A DNA stretch of 8,649 nucleotides, taken from a virus (taxonomy: Duplodnaviria; Heunggongvirae; Uroviricota; Caudoviricetes). The position numbers and the translations under genes were made by a program. The notes beneath the pieces are model-generated. The model saw only the letters and a program-made list of their open reading frames with translations. It ran no database searches and was not told where the DNA came from. The stretch lies in IMG/VR virus record IMGVR_UViG_2698536414_000017. One strand, written 5' to 3'. This document shows positions 651-8,649 of this stretch, piece after piece; within the stretch, counting starts at the first letter, position 1, and every line of letters starts with the position of its first letter.

Positions 651-3600
651 ATGGCGACGTTACGTGAACTGATTATCAAAATTTCGGCAAATTCACAGTC
701 ATTCCAGTCGGAGATCCAGCGGGCGTCCCGTATGGGCAGTGAATATTACCGGACCCTGCAGAATGGCGGACGTCAGGCTGCTGCGGCAGCCAGGGAGCAG
801 CGCCGGGCTCTGGCTGAGCTGCACAGCCAGTTGACGGAAATCCGCGCTTCGGCTGTCGGAATGACCGGTGCGTTTGCCGGTGCCTTTGCCACCGGACACC
901 TGATTTCGCTGGCGGATGAATGGAGCTCCGTGAATGCCCGTCTGAAACAGGCGTCGCAGTCATCGGATGAATTTGCGTCATCACAGAAAGTGCTGATGGA
1001 TATCAGCCAGCGGACAGGCACCGCATTTTCGGATAATGCGGCCCTGTTTGCCCGTTCGGCTGCCTCGATGCGTGAATATGGTTACAGTGCTGATGATGTG
1101 CTGAAGGTGACGGAGGCCATTTCGACAGGGCTGAAAATCTCCGGTGCCAGTACGGCAGAGGCGGGCTCGGTGATCACCCAGTTCAGTCAGGCGCTGGCGC
1201 AGGGTGTATTGCGTGGTGAGGAGTTTAATTCGGTCAATGAAAGTGGTGACCGGATCGTACGTGCACTGGCTGCGGGTATGGGCGTGGCCCGTAAAGATCT
1301 GAAGGCAATGGCGGATGACGGAAAACTGACAGCGGATAAAGTGGTCCCCGCGTTAATCAGCCAGCTGGGGATATTACGTGATGAATATGCGGCCATGCCG
1401 GAAACGGTTTCCAGTAGTATCACAAAGGTGGAAAACGCCTTTATGGCCTGGGTGGGCGGTGCGAATGAGGCCAGCGGGGTGACAAAAACGCTCTCCGGCA
1501 TGCTGAACGGTGTTGCCGGACAGATTGAGAATGTGGCAACAGCCGTGGGCGCGCTGGTTGCCGTCGGGGTTGCCCGGTACTTTGGCAATATGGCCTCCGG
1601 AGCGATGTCTGCCACGGCAGGACTTGTGACGGCTGCACGTAATGAAGTTGCACTGGCGGAAGCACAGTTCAGGGGAACGCAGATTGCCACGGCGCGGGCA
1701 AGGGCAGCCGTGTACCGTGCTCAGCAGGCCGTGGCGGCAGCCCGCGGGACGGAGATGCAGATTGCTGCAGAGGCCCGTCTGGCGGCCACACAGGAACGCC
1801 TGAACAGAAATATTGCTGCCAGAAGCGCCGCCCAGAATGCGCTGAACAGTACAACGGCGGTGGGCTCACGTCTGATGAGCGGTGCGCTGGGGCTGGTTGG
1901 TGGCGTACCCGGACTGGTGATGCTGGGGGCTGCAGCATGGTACACGCTGTACCAGAATCAGGAGCAGGCCAGGGAGTCTGCGCGCCAGTATGCACTGACG
2001 ATAGATGAAATCGCGCATAAAACGCCGTCAATGTCTTTGCCTGAAGCCTCAGATAATGAAGGACGAACACGGGCGGCGCTGACAGAGCAGAACCGGCTGA
2101 TTGATGAACAGGCCAGTCGGGTGAAATCCCTGCAGGAAAAAATCGCAGGATATCAGTATGTTCTGGCGAACCCGGGCTGGACGACCGGTGACGGATTCAT
2201 GATAAACCATCTGACCTCGGTGAAGACCGTAACGGAAGGGCTTGCTCAGGCAACAGAGCAGCTTGCCGTTGAGCAGTCCCGTCTGGCACAGATGCAGGAA
2301 AAAGCGCAGTCCATTCAGGATGTGCTTGCCGGGCTGGAAGACCGTCGTGTGGCGTTAATTCGTCAGCAGGCGGCAGAGCAGAATAAGGTGTACCAGTCCA
2401 TGCTGGTTATGAATGGTCAGCATACGGAATTCAACCGTCTGCTGGGGCTGGGTAATGAACTGCTTCAGCAGCGGCAGGGACTGGTGAATGTGCCGTTACG
2501 GCTGCCACAGGCCACTCTGGATGATAAACAGCAGAGTGCCCTGACAAAAACAGAGCGTGAGCTGGCCCTGTCCAGACTGAAAGGGGAAGAAAAAGAGCGT
2601 GTCCGGCTGGGGTATGCGGCGGATGACCTCGGTTTTGTGGGTGATCCGTATCAGGAGGCGAGACAGCGTTATATCAGTAATGCCCTGGAAGCCTGGCGCA
2701 ATAACGAGGCGAATAAACCCAAATCCCGGGGTGGAAAATCAGAGACGGAAAAAGCGGAAGACAGTTTTTCCCGGCTGCTGAAGCAGCAGAAAGAGCAACT
2801 GGCACTGGTGGGGCAGAATACAGAGCTGGCGAAGCTGAAATACCAGACTGCGCAGGGCGAACTGAAAACCCTGACGGAGATGCAGAAGCAGGAGCTGCTG
2901 CGTAATGCGGCCCTGATTGACCAGCAAAAAATCCGGGAACAGTTGCGATCCCGGGAAGAGACACTGAAGAATGAGAATGCGGCTGCGCGTGCGTCGAATG
3001 ATGCTGAACTGCTGGGGTACGGGCAGGGGGAACGAGCCAGAGAACGCATGCGGGAGTTGCAGCAGATCCGCGACAGCTTCCGCCAGAAGGATGCGGACCT
3101 TCAGTCTCAGTATCAGACCGGGGATATCAGTGAGGATTTTTACAGACAGGCTCTGGCGCAGAATGCACAGTATCTGAGTGAACGTCTGAAAGAGCAGGAA
3201 GCCTTTTATGCCGAATCGGATGCGCAGCGTGCGGACTGGCAGAAAGGGCTGCAGGAGGGATTCAGTAACTGGGTGGATAATGCGTCCGATTACGCCTCAC
3301 AGGCAGCACAGCTTGCGACGGAGGGTATCTCAGGGATGGTGAATAACATCACGGAGATGCTGAACGGAAATAAAGTGGAATGGCGCAGCTGGGCCTCATC
3401 AGTGCTGCAGGAAATATCAAAAGTTCTTATGAATGCCGCGATTGTCAACGGAATTAAGACGGCGGCAAACGGTATGTCCGGTGCGGGAGGATTTCTCGGC
3501 AGCATTGGTGACTGGCTGGGCGGAGCGGTGGCCAATGCAAAAGGCGGCGTGTATACCTCGGCAAACCTGAGTGCGTACAGCAACAGTATTGTGGATACGC

Positions 3601-4227: not shown

Positions 4228-4925
4228 TGCAGGATATTCACGAAGAAAGTCTGAACGAGTCGGTTAAATCAGAGCAGTCACCGCGGGTGGTGCTCTGGGA
4301 AATTGACCTGACGGTGCAGGGCGGTGAGCGGTATTTTTTCTGTAATGAGCTGAATGAAAAAGGGGAGCCGGTCACCTGGCAGGGGCGGCAATATCAGGCA
4401 TACCCGATTGACGGCAGCGGTTTTGAGATGAACGGGAAGGGCAGCAGTGCCAGACCGTCGCTGACGGTGTCCAATCTGTTTGGTCTGGTCACCGGGATGG
4501 CGGAGGACCTGCAGAGCCTGGTGGGGGCCACGGTGGTCCGCCGCCGGGTGTATGCCCGTTTTCTGGATGCGGTGAATTTTGTGGCGGGCAATCCGGAAGC
4601 GGACCCGGAGCAGGAGCTGAGCGACCGCTGGGTGGTGGAGCAGATGTCGCAGCTGACAGCCATGACGGCCTCGTTTGTGCTGGCCACACCGACCGAGACG
4701 GACGGGGCGCTGTTTCCCGGTCGTATCATGCTGGCGAACACCTGTATGTGGACCTACCGCTCTGATGAGTGTGGTTACACGGGCGGGGCTGTGGCGGATG
4801 AGTTCGATAAACCCACCACGGATATCCGTAAGGACAGATGCAGCAAGTGCATGCGCGGGTGTGAACTGCGCAGGAATGTCGGCAATTTTGGCGGTTTCCT
4901 TTCCATTAATAAACTTTCGCAGTAA
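4227..4925 (+). CDS. L: Tail tip protein L (lambda gpL homologue), 232 aa; C-terminal cysteine cluster
   Basis: ATG overlaps the M stop (TGATG), with aggtgg 7 nt upstream. Sequence MQDIHEESLNE...VVLWEIDLT...GGERYFFCNE...NVGNFGGFLSINKLSQ is near-collinear with lambda gpL. The track ORF begins 9 codons earlier at 4200, but homology and RBS favour 4227. Confidence 0.9.
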   Translation: MQDIHEESLNESVKSEQSPRVVLWEIDLTVQGGERYFFCNELNEKGEPVTWQGRQYQAYPIDGSGFEMNGKGSSARPSLTVSNLFGLVTGMAEDLQSLVGATVVRRRVYARFLDAVNFVAGNPEADPEQELSDRWVVEQMSQLTAMTASFVLATPTETDGALFPGRIMLANTCMWTYRSDECGYTGGAVADEFDKPTTDIRKDRCSKCMRGCELRRNVGNFGGFLSINKLSQ

Positions 4926-4935
4926 ATCCCGGTTT

Positions 4936-5679
4936 ATGACACAGACTGAATCAGCGATTCTGGCGCATGCCCGGCGGTGTGCGCCTGCGGAGTCGTGCGG
5001 CTTCGTGGTGAGAACGCCGGAGGGGGAGCGGTATATCCCTTGTGTGAATATCTCTGCAGAGCCGGAGGCGTATTTTCGTATTGCACCGGAAGACTGGCTG
5101 CGGGCAGAGATGCAGGGGGAGATTATGGCACTGGTCCACAGTCATCCCGGTGGTCTGCCCTGGCTGAGCGAGGCCGACCGGCGGCTGCAGATAAAAAGTG
5201 CACTGTCCTGGTGGCTGGTCTGCCGGGGGGACATTCATAAATTCCGCTGTGTGCCACATCTGACAGGACGGCGCTTTGAGCACGGGGTGACGGACTGTTA
5301 CACGCTGTTCCGGGATGCCTGCCATCTGGCGGGAATTGATATGCCGGATTTTGAGCGTGAGGATGACTGGTGGCGCAACGGTCAGAACCTGTACCTGGAC
5401 AATATGGAGGCGACTGGTTTTTACAGGATTTCCCTGCCTTCCGCACAGCCTGGCGATATCCTGCTGTGCTGCTTTGGCGCATCGGTGGCCAATCATGCCG
5501 CCATATACTGCGGCAACGGTGAGCTGCTTCACCATCTGCCTGAACAACTGAGTAAACGGGAGAGGTATTCCGAAAAATGGCAACGACGAACGCATTCTGT
5601 CTGGCGTCACCGCCACTGGCACGCATCTGCCTTCACGGGGATTTACAACGATTTGGCCGCCGCCTCAGCCTGTATGTGA
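4936..5679 (+). CDS. K: Tail tip assembly protein K (lambda gpK homologue): N-terminal MPN/JAMM domain plus C-terminal NlpC/P60-like domain, 247 aa
   Basis: Begins MTQTESAILAHARRCAPAESCGFVV, as I recall lambda gpK. JAMM motif HSHPGGLPWLSEAD (HxHx7Sx2D) is intact, and a candidate NlpC/P60 catalytic Cys sits in GVTDCYTLFRDA. The track ORF 4675..5679 is an in-frame upstream extension overlapping L and is rejected as the start. Confidence 0.9.
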   Translation: MTQTESAILAHARRCAPAESCGFVVRTPEGERYIPCVNISAEPEAYFRIAPEDWLRAEMQGEIMALVHSHPGGLPWLSEADRRLQIKSALSWWLVCRGDIHKFRCVPHLTGRRFEHGVTDCYTLFRDACHLAGIDMPDFEREDDWWRNGQNLYLDNMEATGFYRISLPSAQPGDILLCCFGASVANHAAIYCGNGELLHHLPEQLSKRERYSEKWQRRTHSVWRHRHWHASAFTGIYNDLAAASACM

Positions 5680-6257
5680 ACACGGCAGCGGAAGCCATTC
5701 GCGCCCTGTCGATGCAGATGCCGGGCTTTCGCCGTCAGATGAACGAAGGCTGGTACCAGATACGTATTGCCGGTGATGACACGGCACCGGAGGCGGTGTA
5801 TGCCCGTCTTCACGAACAGCTGGGTGAGGGAACGGTCATCCACATTGTGCCGCGACTGGCCGGGGCCGGAAAGGGTGGACTGCAGATTGTGCTGGGGGCG
5901 GCAGCCATCGTGGGCTCTTTCTTCACGGCCGGAGGCTCGATGGCGTTATGGGGTACAGCCCTGAGTGCCGGTGGTTTTTCTGCCACCACGATGCTGTTTT
6001 CACTGGGGGCCAGCATGATACTGGGCGGTGTGGCCCAGATGCTAGCCCCGAAGGCAAAAACACCGGAGTACAAAAGCACGGATAACGGTAAACAGAACAC
6101 GTACTTTTCCTCCCTGGATAACATGATTGCCCAGGGTAACCCGATGCCGGTGCCTTACGGGGAAATGCTGGTTGGCTCCCGCCGTATATCCCAGGACATC
6201 AGTACCCGTGATGAAGGCGGGGGCGGAAAGGTCGTGGTTATCGGGCGACAGGGGTAA
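5577..6257 (+). CDS. I: Tail tip assembly protein I (lambda gpI homologue), 226 aa
   Basis: Motifs ARICLHGDLQRFGRR, WYQIRIAGDD, VIHIVPRLAGAG, Gly/Ala-rich hydrophobic segment, TDNGKQNTYFSSLDNMIAQGN and GEMLVGSR match lambda gpI. Overlaps the 3' end of K by 103 nt in another frame. Confidence 0.9.
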   Translation: MATTNAFCLASPPLARICLHGDLQRFGRRLSLYVNTAAEAIRALSMQMPGFRRQMNEGWYQIRIAGDDTAPEAVYARLHEQLGEGTVIHIVPRLAGAGKGGLQIVLGAAAIVGSFFTAGGSMALWGTALSAGGFSATTMLFSLGASMILGGVAQMLAPKAKTPEYKSTDNGKQNTYFSSLDNMIAQGNPMPVPYGEMLVGSRRISQDISTRDEGGGGKVVVIGRQG

Positions 6258-6303
6258 AAAGAATAAAAAAATCCCGCAGTGATCGCGGACAGGAACTGCG
6301 GGA
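6258..6303 (-). terminator. Minus-strand intrinsic terminator: 9-bp perfect inverted repeat followed on the minus strand by a U-tract
   Basis: tcccgcagt (6272-6280) and actgcggga (6295-6303) are exact reverse complements around a 14-nt loop. On the minus strand the stem is followed by TTTTTTTATTCTTTTT (plus coordinates 6258-6271). On the plus strand it is preceded by A-run, so it should not terminate plus-strand transcription efficiently. Confidence 0.5.
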
Positions 6304-6362
6304 GCGTTACGAAGATTAAGTGTAAGGAATTATTCTTATGTCACGACAAAAAACATTAACGC
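6258..6362 (-). ncRNA. Candidate ~100-nt small RNA on the minus strand (hypothetical; bounded by the candidate promoter and the minus-strand terminator)
   Basis: No ORF longer than 6 codons on the minus strand here. Sigma70-like promoter candidate upstream and intrinsic terminator downstream. AT-rich (about one-third G+C by my count over 6301-6420) against roughly 55-60% in flanking genes. Confidence 0.25.
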
Positions 6363-6368
6363 AGAGAA

Positions 6369-6396
6369 ATTATTAGCACCACAGTCAGTTTGTGAA
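6369..6396 (-). promoter_or_regulatory. Candidate sigma70 promoter on the minus strand (TTCACA - 16 nt - AATAAT)
   Basis: Minus-strand -35 TTCACA is the complement of plus 6391-6396; -10 AATAAT is the complement of plus 6369-6374; spacer is 16 nt. Sequence match only. Confidence 0.25.
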
Positions 6397-6433
6397 AATG
6401 TGAAGATATTCAGAATTTTTATTCAGTCATGAT

Positions 6434-6466
6434 ACAGGCATCCTCCGGGGTGCCTGTTGTTTTTTG
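6434..6466 (+). terminator. Plus-strand intrinsic terminator upstream of J
   Basis: acaggcatc (6434-6442) pairs with ggtgcctgt (6449-6457), including one G-U pair, around a 6-nt loop, followed by tgttttttgg. Sits 40 nt upstream of the J Shine-Dalgarno. Confidence 0.55.
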
Positions 6467-6508
6467 GGCATAAACAGATTCAGACATCAGACAGGAGAGG
6501 GGGACAGA

Positions 6509-8649
6509 GTGGGTAAAGGGGGCGGCAAGGGGCACACACCGCGTGAGGCGAAGGATAATCTCAAATCCACGCAGATGATGAGTGTGATTGATGCGATTGG
6601 TGAGGGACCGATAGAAGGCCCGGTGAAGGGACTGCAGAGTATCCTGGTGAACAAAACCCCGCTGACGGACACGGACGGTAATCCCGTGATACACGGTGTG
6701 ACGGCGGTCTGGCGCGCCGGGGAGCAGGAGCAGACACCACCGGAAGGCTTTGAGTCCTCCGGTGCTGAAACCGGACTGGGCGTGGAAGTGACGAAGGCAA
6801 AACCGGTGACGCGCACCATTACGTCCGCGAACATTGACCGCCTGCGGGTTACCTTCGGGGTGCAGTCACTGGTGCAGACCACGTCAAAGGGCGACCGTAA
6901 TCCTTCCTCTGTCCGGATTCTGATTCAGTTACAGCGTAATGGCCGCTGGGTGACGGAAAAGGACGTCACCATTAACGGCAAGACCACCTCACAGTTCCTG
7001 GCCTCGGTGATTCTGGATAATCTGCCTCCCCGCCCCTTTAACATCCGGATGGTCCGGGAGACGGCGGACAGCACCACGGACCAGCTGCAGAACAGAACGC
7101 TGTGGTCGTCATACACCGAAATCATCGATGTGAAACAGTGCTACCCGAACACGGCGATTGTGGGGCTGCAGGTGGATGCGGAGCAGTTTGGCGGTCAGCA
7201 GATGACGGTGAACTACCATATCCGCGGTCGCATAATTCAGGTACCGTCAAACTATGACCCGGAAAAACGCACTTACAGCGGTATCTGGGACGGCAGCCTG
7301 AAGCCGGCATACAGCAACAACCCGGCCTGGTGCCTGTGGGACATGCTGACTCACCCGCGCTATGGCATGGGAAAACGTCTGGGGGCGGCGGATGTGGACA
7401 AGTGGGCGCTGTATGCCATCGGGCAGTACTGCGACCAGACGGTCCCGGATGGTTTCGGGGGCACAGAGCCGCGGATGACCTTTAATGCGTACCTGTCACA
7501 ACAGCGTAAGGCGTGGGACGTTCTCAGTGATTTCTGCTCGGCGATGCGCTGTATGCCGGTATGGAACGGCCAGACGCTGACGTTCGTTCAGGACCGCCCG
7601 TCGGATGTGGTGTGGCCGTACACCAACAGCGATGTGGTGGTGGATGATAACGGCGTGGGGTTTCGCTACAGCTTCAGCGCCCTGAAGGACCGGCACACGG
7701 CGGTGGAGGTGAATTACACCGACCCGCAGAACGGCTGGCAGACCTCCACGGAACTGGTGGAAGACCCGGAAGCCATACTGCGCTACGGGCGCAACCTGCT
7801 GAAGATGGATGCGTTCGGCTGCACCAGTCGCGGTCAGGCCCACCGTGCCGGACTGTGGGTGATAAAGACCGGACTGCTGGAAACGCAGACGGTGGACTTC
7901 ACGCTCGGGTCACAGGGGCTGCGTCACACACCGGGTGACATTATTGAAATCTGTGATAACGACTATGCCGGGACCCTGACCGGCGGACGTATCCTGTCCA
8001 TTGATGCTGCCACCCGCACCCTGACGCTGGACCGTGAGGTTACCCTGCCGGAGACAGGTACATCGGCGGTGAACCTGATTAACGGCAGCGGTAAGCCGGT
8101 GAGCGTGGCCATCACTGCACACCCCGCGCCGGACCGGATACAGGTCAGCACCCTGCCTGATGGTGTGGAGACATACGGTGTATGGGGGCTCTCCCTGCCG
8201 TCACTGCGTCGTCGCCTGTTCCGCTGTGTCTCCATCCGGGAAAACACGGACGGCACCTTTGCCATCACGGCGGTGCAGCACGTACCGGAAAAAGAAGCCA
8301 TTGTGGATAACGGGGCCAGCTTTGAGCCACTGTCCGGTTCGCTGAACAGCGTCATCCCGCCGGCTGTGCAGCACCTGACGGTGGAGGTGAGCGCGGCTGA
8401 CGGTCAGTATCTGGCACAGGCGAAATGGGACACGCCGCGGGTGGTGAAGGGCGTGCGCTTCAGTCTGCGCCTGACCAGTGGAAGCGGTCAGGACAGCCGT
8501 CTGGTGACCACCGCCATCACCGCGGATACAGAGCACCGTTTCAGTGGTCTGCCGCTCGGGGAATACACCCTGACAGTCAGGGCAATTAACAGTTATGGCC
8601 AGCAGGGCGAACCGGCCACCACCACCTTCCGGATTAACGCGCCAGCAAA
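6509..8649 (+). CDS. J: Central tail fibre / host specificity protein J (lambda gpJ homologue), N-terminal ~713 aa; 3' end lies beyond the window
   Basis: GTG start with aggaga 10 nt upstream. My translation begins MGKGGGKGHTPREAKDNLKSTQMMSVIDAIGEGPIEGP, matching the lambda gpJ N-terminus as I recall it (MGKGSSKGHTPREAKDNLKSTQ). Frame stays open to the end of the window, which is why it is absent from the ORF track. Downstream motifs (CYPNTA, PAYSNNPAWCLWDMLTHPRYGMGKRLG, AMRCMPVWNGQTLTF, RCVSIRENTDGTFAITAVQHVPEKEAIVDNGA) are collinear with lambda J. Confidence 0.9.
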   Translation, partial: MGKGGGKGHTPREAKDNLKSTQMMSVIDAIGEGPIEGPVKGLQSILVNKTPLTDTDGNPVIHGVTAVWRAGEQEQTPPEGFESSGAETGLGVEVTKAKPVTRTITSANIDRLRVTFGVQSLVQTTSKGDRNPSSVRILIQLQRNGRWVTEKDVTINGKTTSQFLASVILDNLPPRPFNIRMVRETADSTTDQLQNRTLWSSYTEIIDVKQCYPNTAIVGLQVDAEQFGGQQMTVNYHIRGRIIQVPSNYDPEKRTYSGIWDGSLKPAYSNNPAWCLWDMLTHPRYGMGKRLGAADVDKWALYAIGQYCDQTVPDGFGGTEPRMTFNAYLSQQRKAWDVLSDFCSAMRCMPVWNGQTLTFVQDRPSDVVWPYTNSDVVVDDNGVGFRYSFSALKDRHTAVEVNYTDPQNGWQTSTELVEDPEAILRYGRNLLKMDAFGCTSRGQAHRAGLWVIKTGLLETQTVDFTLGSQGLRHTPGDIIEICDNDYAGTLTGGRILSIDAATRTLTLDREVTLPETGTSAVNLINGSGKPVSVAITAHPAPDRIQVSTLPDGVETYGVWGLSLPSLRRRLFRCVSIRENTDGTFAITAVQHVPEKEAIVDNGASFEPLSGSLNSVIPPAVQHLTVEVSAADGQYLAQAKWDTPRVVKGVRFSLRLTSGSGQDSRLVTTAITADTEHRFSGLPLGEYTLTVRAINSYGQQGEPATTTFRINAPA

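Follow-up and report, generated by a model that had tools for sequence, protein, structure and literature searches.

The additional DNA between tail genes I and J of this prophage is very probably a self-contained small RNA (sRNA) gene, organised moron-style and antisense to the tail operon, and an allele of the locus that has been published under the names PasB and EcOnc22/23/24. The window, by which we mean the whole stretch of 8,649 nucleotides analysed, covers the tail region of a lambdoid prophage. Upstream of the gap lies the tail assembly gene I (5577..6257, plus strand), called as an ORF whose product is 66% identical to lambda I and whose homologues carry the annotation tail assembly protein I. 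Downstream, J is preceded by a ribosome-binding site (GGAGAG, 6494-6499) and opens with a GTG codon at 6509 (the two elements together spanning 6494..6511, plus strand); its N-terminus is 77% identical to that of lambda J. Between the I stop at 6257 and the J start at 6509 there are 251 bp, compared with 60 bp in lambda (I at 14773-15444, J from 15505), in agreement with the original prediction of a gap of about 250 bp that is longer than its lambda counterpart. The same prediction had put the G+C content of 6301-6420 at about one-third, below that of the flanking tail genes, and this too is borne out, with a value of 0.325 for this segment and 0.406 for the whole I-J gap against 0.595 for I and 0.605 for J.

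Scanning an 800-bp region against consensus sequences returned two promoter-like sites (0.6 expected) and three terminator-like sites (1.0 expected), and recovered all three of the elements that had been proposed from the letters, namely a minus-strand TTCACA-N16-AATAAT promoter, a minus-strand terminator within 6258-6303 and a plus-strand terminator at 6434-6466. The promoter (6369..6396, minus strand) is of the sigma-70 type, with a -35 hexamer TTCACA at 6396-6391, a 16-nt spacer and a -10 hexamer AATAAT at 6374-6369, giving 10/12 consensus matches. The -10 hexamer is AATAAT in the window allele and a perfect TATAAT in most alleles, and both hexamers are in register in all 30 alleles that were aligned. 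For the minus-strand terminator, the scan reported a hairpin at 6289..6273 followed by a T-run; its stronger form, which agrees with the proposed span, is a 7-bp stem (CCCGCAG/CTGCGGG, 6302-6296/6279-6273) with a 16-nt loop, followed by A and U7 (6272-6265). This intrinsic terminator (6265..6302, minus strand) brings the end of the sRNA gene to within 8 nt of the I stop codon. Taking the start from the position of the -10 hexamer, the predicted primary transcript runs from 6362 to 6265 on the minus strand and is about 98 nt long. For the 98-nt RNA a folding energy of -24.9 kcal/mol (z = -3.4) was calculated; a 5' closing helix that was predicted for it was rejected as it is not kept in other alleles.

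A discrete, abundant and Hfq-dependent RNA is known from the same position and strand in homologous prophages, which upholds the central claim of the original prediction, a minus-strand, moron-type sRNA of about 100 nt. PasB (pathogenicity-associated sRNA B) was described in EPEC E2348/69 by Pearl Mizrahi et al. 2021 (PMC8550237) and is listed there as an 83-nt RNA on the minus strand of NC_011601.1 at 1466343-1466261, between E2348C_1436 and E2348C_1437 (Table S6). In RefSeq these two genes are annotated as tail assembly protein and gpJ. By pairwise alignment the PasB coordinates map to 6265-6347 of the window, again on the minus strand. The published size comes from RNA-seq coverage and a Northern blot with the probe AATCCCGCAGTGATCGCGGAGCT (PMC8550237), of which the first 20 bases are identical to window 6271-6290 (20 of 23 bases matching). 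The mean read count of PasB in E2348/69 was 482-1082, compared with 5 and 15 for the flanking I and J genes (PMC8550237); given that PasB is abundant in a lysogen in which the neighbouring tail genes are near-silent, it is therefore an independent transcription unit. In the hfq mutant the level of PasB changed by log2 values of -6.8 and -2.4, and the RNA ranked 15th by number of RIL-seq interactions (PMC8550237). It is absent from the target-motif table of that study (Table S7), where no target motif or seed is reported for it.

The window gene shares with PasB its two flanking genes, its strand, its distance from the I stop, the terminator stem and the U7 tail; it differs in the -10 hexamer, which is TATAAT in PasB and AATAAT in the window. 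Identity to E2348/69 is distributed very unevenly along the gap, at 77% for the terminator (6265-6303), 57% for the central body (6304-6345), 89% for the promoter (6369-6396), 92% for the block upstream of the promoter (6397-6433) and 31% for the last 42 bases before J (6467-6508), and over the whole 83-nt PasB 65% of the aligned columns match the window. The survey of Zhu, Shabalina and Storz 2026 (doi 10.64898/2026.05.13.724894) used blastn with a word size of 28 and a query coverage above 75%. At this word size the PasB query gave no match in the window, and at a word size of 11 only the 25-nt terminator was matched, a coverage of 30%. Judged by its sequence and setting, the window gene is thus an allele of the PasB locus and not a PasB sequence variant in the survey's sense. 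A search of the whole window against Rfam at gathering scores gave no match, and there is no PasB family in Rfam; when 6200-6560 was searched with E values of up to 10, the Bacteroides sRNA BTnc201 was returned with 16.8 bits against a threshold of 105 (E = 1.9) and was dismissed as a chance-level hit.

The second published record of the locus comes from EHEC Sakai, where EcOnc22, EcOnc23 and EcOnc24 were reported as homologous Hfq-crosslinking peaks in prophages Sp15, Sp14 and Sp11 (Tree et al. 2014, PMC4104026, Table S2). EcOnc22 gave a band of about 85 nt on a Northern blot and was destabilised in the absence of Hfq (PMC4104026). All three peaks map to I-J gaps of the current Sakai record, in antisense orientation to the tail genes. 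If their coordinates are taken literally on this record the peaks fall upstream of the promoter, a placement that we rejected, its cause being a genome-version difference of +137 nt. AsxR and AgvB, located with their Rfam models, show offsets of +135 to +146 nt at 1.27 and 1.94 Mb, and the EcOnc42 homologue gives a consistent value at 2.92 Mb. With a shift of +137 nt all three Sakai peaks are placed on the RNA body, …UGCCUGAAAAAUAACUCCAUAACGUUAAUCUUCAUCGUUCUCUCCCGCAG…, equivalent to approximately 6280-6345 in the window. EcOnc22-24 resemble the window gene in their I-J location, antisense orientation and common frame of upstream box, promoter and terminator, but they carry a different body allele, which resembles that of allele L039 (…GAAAAAUAACUCCAUAACGUUAAUCUUC…). 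PasB and EcOnc22-24 therefore appear to be two published names for one locus, a link that has apparently not been made before. In Table S6 no EHEC homologue is given for PasB (PMC8550237), neither that paper nor the Zhu et al. preprint connects PasB to EcOnc22-24, and just one indexed paper mentions EcOnc22-24, an earlier review that is silent on PasB. The connection was probably missed owing to the differing bodies of the two alleles.

The promoter predicts a start at 6362, and the published 5' end of PasB, which maps to 6347, is 15 nt further downstream. This published end reflects read coverage and an approximate Northern size, not the mapping of a start site (PMC8550237). A start near 6362 should produce an RNA of about 98 nt from the window allele and of about 90 nt from the Sakai allele, fitting the 85-nt band seen in Sakai.

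To describe the locus as a whole we collected 80 viral contigs encoding I, together with E2348/69, which yielded 30 distinct versions of the sRNA unit. Mean pairwise identity across these 30 alleles is 99% in the upstream box, 98-99% in the terminator stem arms and 82% in the promoter, falling to 64% in the body (6303-6347) and 49% in the terminator loop. The bodies form eight clusters at 85% identity, from which we infer that one promoter-terminator frame is common to at least eight body alleles. No covariation was found in the sRNA terminator, the stem of which is invariant across the alleles. Since the body of the window allele differs from those of PasB and EcOnc22-24, its targets probably differ as well.

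In addition to the U7 tail, the window RNA carries features in its sequence that would suit an Hfq-dependent pairing sRNA, namely a consensus body that is predicted to be unpaired and an A-R-N run. The variable body and candidate pairing region (6303..6347, minus strand) contains the A-R-N run at 6337-6329, the motif UUCCUU at 6329-6324 and AAUCUUC at 6317-6311. Every allele tested keeps an A-R-N run of at least three triplets followed by a pyrimidine-rich, mostly UCCUU-like motif, which is UUCCUU in the window and CUCCUU, CUCCCU or CUCCA in most other alleles; after it come 5-8 variable bases and then an invariant AUCUU. The run of the window allele has three triplets, a length reached by 52 of 2000 shuffled sequences, and those of other alleles have 3-7. 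The consensus fold of 15 alleles has a single-stranded 5' part and is paired only at the terminator, as is typical of Hfq-binding sRNAs.

The most conserved piece of the gap is a CRP-like box, AAATGTGAAGATATTCAGAATT, at 6396..6417, which agrees with 14 of the 16 specified consensus positions and is 99% identical across the 30 alleles. No other site of this kind occurs in the window, where 0.01 would be expected by chance. The centre of the box, at 6406.5, lies at -44.5 relative to a start at 6362, the latter being deduced from the -10 hexamer. This spacing differs from the canonical activating positions of CRP, -41.5 and -61.5. By our comparison, the box also partly resembles a Cra site. Spf is repressed by CRP. 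Published levels of the two RNAs run in opposite directions, PasB being higher in the non-activating condition and Spf five-fold higher in the activating condition (PMC8550237). PasB is thus up where Spf is down, a pattern that fits CRP activation of PasB. The presence of this invariant box suggests that the sRNA may be under carbon-source control; that CRP itself governs the promoter of the PasB locus through this upstream box is possible, although we lean towards doubting it.

The plus-strand terminator-like hairpin (6434..6466) is not part of the sRNA and is probably a feature of the I-J junction. It has a 10-bp stem and a 4-nt loop, followed by UGUUUUUU; the scan reported it as a hairpin at 6434-6457 followed by TGTTTTTT. 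One stem pair is U-G, U-A or C-G across variants, with a single C-A exception. We place the hairpin outside the sRNA unit because a class of gaps of 338-343 bp keeps the unit to about 6422, joined to a different right-hand module, and lacks the hairpin; because the junction of lambda, where there is no insert, likewise carries a hairpin with a U-rich tail, immediately upstream of the J ribosome-binding site; and because there is neither a plus-strand promoter nor a RIL-seq entry to go with it. It was nevertheless the basis for an alternative in the original prediction, a plus-strand sRNA ending at 6434-6466. It would originate either from a promoter of its own within the AT-rich stretch or from the 3' end of I by processing. 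The strength of the hairpin with its U-run, the stable fold of 6384-6466 (-26.5 kcal/mol, z = -4.5) and the maintenance of the stem with one compensated pair are all compatible with such an RNA. However, the consensus scan contains no promoter on the plus strand, neither the I-J intergenic region nor the I 3'UTR nor the J 5'UTR appears in the complete E2348/69 RIL-seq RNA table, and the three Hfq peaks of Sakai all map to the opposite strand. Moreover, the conserved block at 6397-6422 travels with the PasB unit and not with the hairpin, the 338-343-bp class keeping the block only, and the similar hairpin of lambda occurs without any insert. The alternative found no support in these data, and we regard a plus-strand sRNA as improbable. 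The hairpin may instead act either as a terminator under Q antitermination or by stabilising the 3' end of the transcript; Q-modified late transcription would be expected to read through it.

A minus-strand RNA might also act mainly in cis. It is perfectly complementary to the I-J part of the late transcript and would pair with this transcript during lytic growth, or with that of an incoming related phage, and so alter processing or the expression of J. The position of the gene, wholly inside the late operon, antisense and 8 nt from the I stop, is what such a role would lead one to expect, and as the body varies among phages each allele would match only its own kind of late transcript. Against this, PasB reaches high levels in uninduced lysogens, in which I and J are near-silent, it has many trans partners on Hfq, and the J ribosome-binding site (6494-6499) is more than 130 nt from the 5' end of the RNA and is not covered by it. 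We therefore consider a main role in cis unlikely, and it may in any case coexist with action in trans. Much less credible is a gap that is simply a recombination scar with two terminators and no product. The junction is indeed a mosaic in which several left-hand and right-hand modules occur in varied combinations, but discrete Hfq-bound transcripts are known for two other alleles (PasB and EcOnc22-24), and conservation of 89-99% in the promoter, upstream box and terminator stem contrasts with free variation in the bases next to them. A further possibility is a small protein. The original prediction had stated that no ORF on either strand exceeds 12 codons, which is inexact. An ORF scan of the I-J gap gave three longer ones: on the plus strand one of 26 codons with a GTG start (6279-6359) and one of 14 codons with an ATG start, and on the minus strand one of 22 codons, also starting with ATG (6487-6419). 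The GTG ORF is not conserved among the alleles, since stop loss and indels of lengths not divisible by three alter its frame and length (26 aa in the window and 113 aa in allele L008), and the minus-strand ORF lies in part in sequence that is 31% identical to E2348/69. A protein product of any of these ORFs of 14-26 codons seems most improbable, and we treat the gap as non-coding mainly because of the transcript data from homologues.

On the model of its homologues, the window sRNA gene would work as follows. RNA polymerase would start at the promoter (6396-6369) near 6362, seven bases past the -10 hexamer, and halt at the hairpin and U7 (6302-6265), releasing an RNA of about 83-98 nt. As in the homologues, the window RNA would be transcribed in lysogens in which the tail genes are silent, would need Hfq for its stability and would pair with many mRNAs on Hfq. 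Its sequence further suggests that Hfq would hold the RNA by the 3' U-tail and by the A-R-N run, serving as a distal-face handle, and that the UUCCUU-like stretch with the variable bases that follow it could constitute the pairing region, with ribosome-binding sites as its probable targets. The variable bases would then set the choice of target.

Among 5426 complete E. coli genomes, 1259 carry the window-type body (6296-6368), with 1759 copies between them, and 1818 match some part of the window I-J gap. Carriers of the window allele include CP148357 and an O55:H7 strain. Outside Escherichia, a search for the invariant box in one genome per species found only chance 20-mers and two tiny, contamination-like contigs, from Asaia and Streptomyces; E. 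albertii was also among the matches of the species-wide search. These results agree with the abstract of Zhu et al. 2026 (doi 10.64898/2026.05.13.724894), which gives PasB as restricted to Escherichia and Shigella. Given that the window allele escapes the survey's BLAST settings and yet has its body in 1259 of the 5426 genomes, the locus has probably been undercounted.

A broader interpretation, which we put forward as plausible though somewhat short of an even chance, is that the I-J sRNA gene is a seed-swapping cassette. A fixed frame, consisting of the CRP-like box, the promoter, the A-R-N handle and the terminator, would be combined with at least eight pairing regions; PasB, EcOnc22-24 and the window gene would be alleles of a locus present in about a third of complete E. 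coli genomes. The most frequent allele would be that of the window, and every allele would be linked to carbon-source sensing. If this were so, the locus would be far commoner than sequence-based surveys of PasB would count.

An Hfq-dependent sRNA at the I-J position is not a new kind of element, having been recorded in 2014 (EcOnc22-24) and in 2021 (PasB). What is new is the window allele, the joining of the two published names and the description of a frame and a variable body together with a candidate CRP site. The survey's statement that PasB is the least diverse Pas sRNA (Zhu et al. 2026, doi 10.64898/2026.05.13.724894) may fail if the gene is defined by its position. The combination of a conserved frame, a variable pairing region and a candidate CRP site leads to testable hypotheses on how prophages rewire host regulation.

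The unit has the layout of a moron, as the original prediction had recognised, with its own promoter and terminator inside the late operon; it is absent from lambda, and in a relative the same slot holds sodC. The moron concept reportedly goes back to Juhala and colleagues in 2000. Protein-coding morons such as prophage sodC similarly have an autonomous promoter and terminator between late genes and are present or absent among relatives, but their cargo is a protein and that of the window unit is an RNA. The two kinds of cargo meet in the relative with sodC (L003), where the gap is 848 bp long and a minus-strand Cu,Zn superoxide dismutase gene replaces the sRNA promoter; this sodC-like gene has the same orientation as the sRNA, and after it come an sRNA body and a terminator of the window type. 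The I-J junction is thus a slot that accumulates extra, independently expressed cargo.

Among prophage-encoded sRNAs, HnrS (EcOnc10/11/12; Poudyal et al. 2026, PMC13502914) is a 66-nt RNA that targets hha and blocks a ribosome-binding site. It is likewise a multicopy, Hfq-associated sRNA of the late genes of EHEC and EPEC prophages, but it was rejected as the identity of the window gene because it maps about 5 kb away from AgvB, towards the beginning of the late genes, and not to the I-J gap. Two other Sakai candidates were rejected as further copies of the locus, EcOnc33, which adjoins sialate esterase and lysis genes, and EcOnc54, which lies in an antirepressor moron between tail genes. The prophage anti-sRNAs AgvB and AsxR (Tree et al. 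2014, PMC4104026) differ from the window gene in their slot, which is downstream of PR' near the lysis and stx genes, in their length of 51-60 nt and in having no sequence similarity to the window, in which their Rfam models found no match. They are nonetheless also short RNAs that are bound by Hfq and occupy moron positions in lambdoid prophages, and the members of the AgvB/AsxR family have a conserved 3' part and a differing pairing part, as do the alleles of the I-J locus.

Among the related viral contigs, more than half (L008 and 34 other loci) carry an I-J gap of 338-343 bp, which in L008 spans 2182-2524. The minus-strand sRNA unit is kept in these loci, and a different right-hand module of ~200 bp, which does not contain the plus-strand terminator, precedes J. 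The I-J gap of the related viral contig L003 extends to 848 bp (2182-3029) and contains a minus-strand ORF for a Cu,Zn superoxide dismutase (sodC-like) that replaces the sRNA promoter and the CRP-like box. The window-type sRNA body and terminator come after this ORF, and in this phage the sodC transcript would have the sRNA sequence as its 3' end.

In phage lambda the I-J gap is only 60 bp (L082 1246-1305, corresponding to lambda 15445-15504), and its predicted fold is a hairpin, AAACCGCC-UGCG-GGCGGUUU, with a U-rich tail behind it and an energy of -21 kcal/mol. The J ribosome-binding site lies immediately downstream of this structure. I-J junctions in general seem to carry a terminator-like hairpin.

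In the block upstream of the sRNA promoter in the window (6391-6428), TGTGAA occurs twice as a direct repeat (6391-6396 and 6399-6404), and so does ATTCAG (6409-6414 and 6423-6428); the CRP-like site is made by the inner TGTGAA/ATTCAG pair only, without the outer copies.

Placing the EcOnc sRNAs of E. coli O157:H7 Sakai on the current RefSeq record (NC_002695.2; L100, L104, L105 and L108) requires a correction of ~137 nt, the coordinates of Tree et al. 2014 (PMC4104026) being lower by this amount at 1.27, 1.94 and 2.92 Mb. The J gene adjacent to EcOnc22 in Sp15 (VT1-Sakai; L100 1-2191 and L101 1740-3239) is annotated in two pieces as mutation-truncated, and the sRNA gene is therefore retained in a prophage with a broken tail tip gene.

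The E. coli prophage I-J junction was also encountered on two very small contigs assigned to unrelated bacteria, namely Asaia platycodi (L084, 546 bp) and Streptomyces flavalbus (L090, 3408 bp). Identity to the E. coli junction is 89-97%, and both contigs look like contamination of the respective assemblies.

The first 103 nt of the I ORF of the window (5577-5679) lie within the 3' end of the preceding ORF (4675-5679), which is presumably K; the K and I genes of lambda overlap likewise. A later start is given to the I homologue of E2348/69 in the RefSeq annotation (582 nt versus 681 nt).
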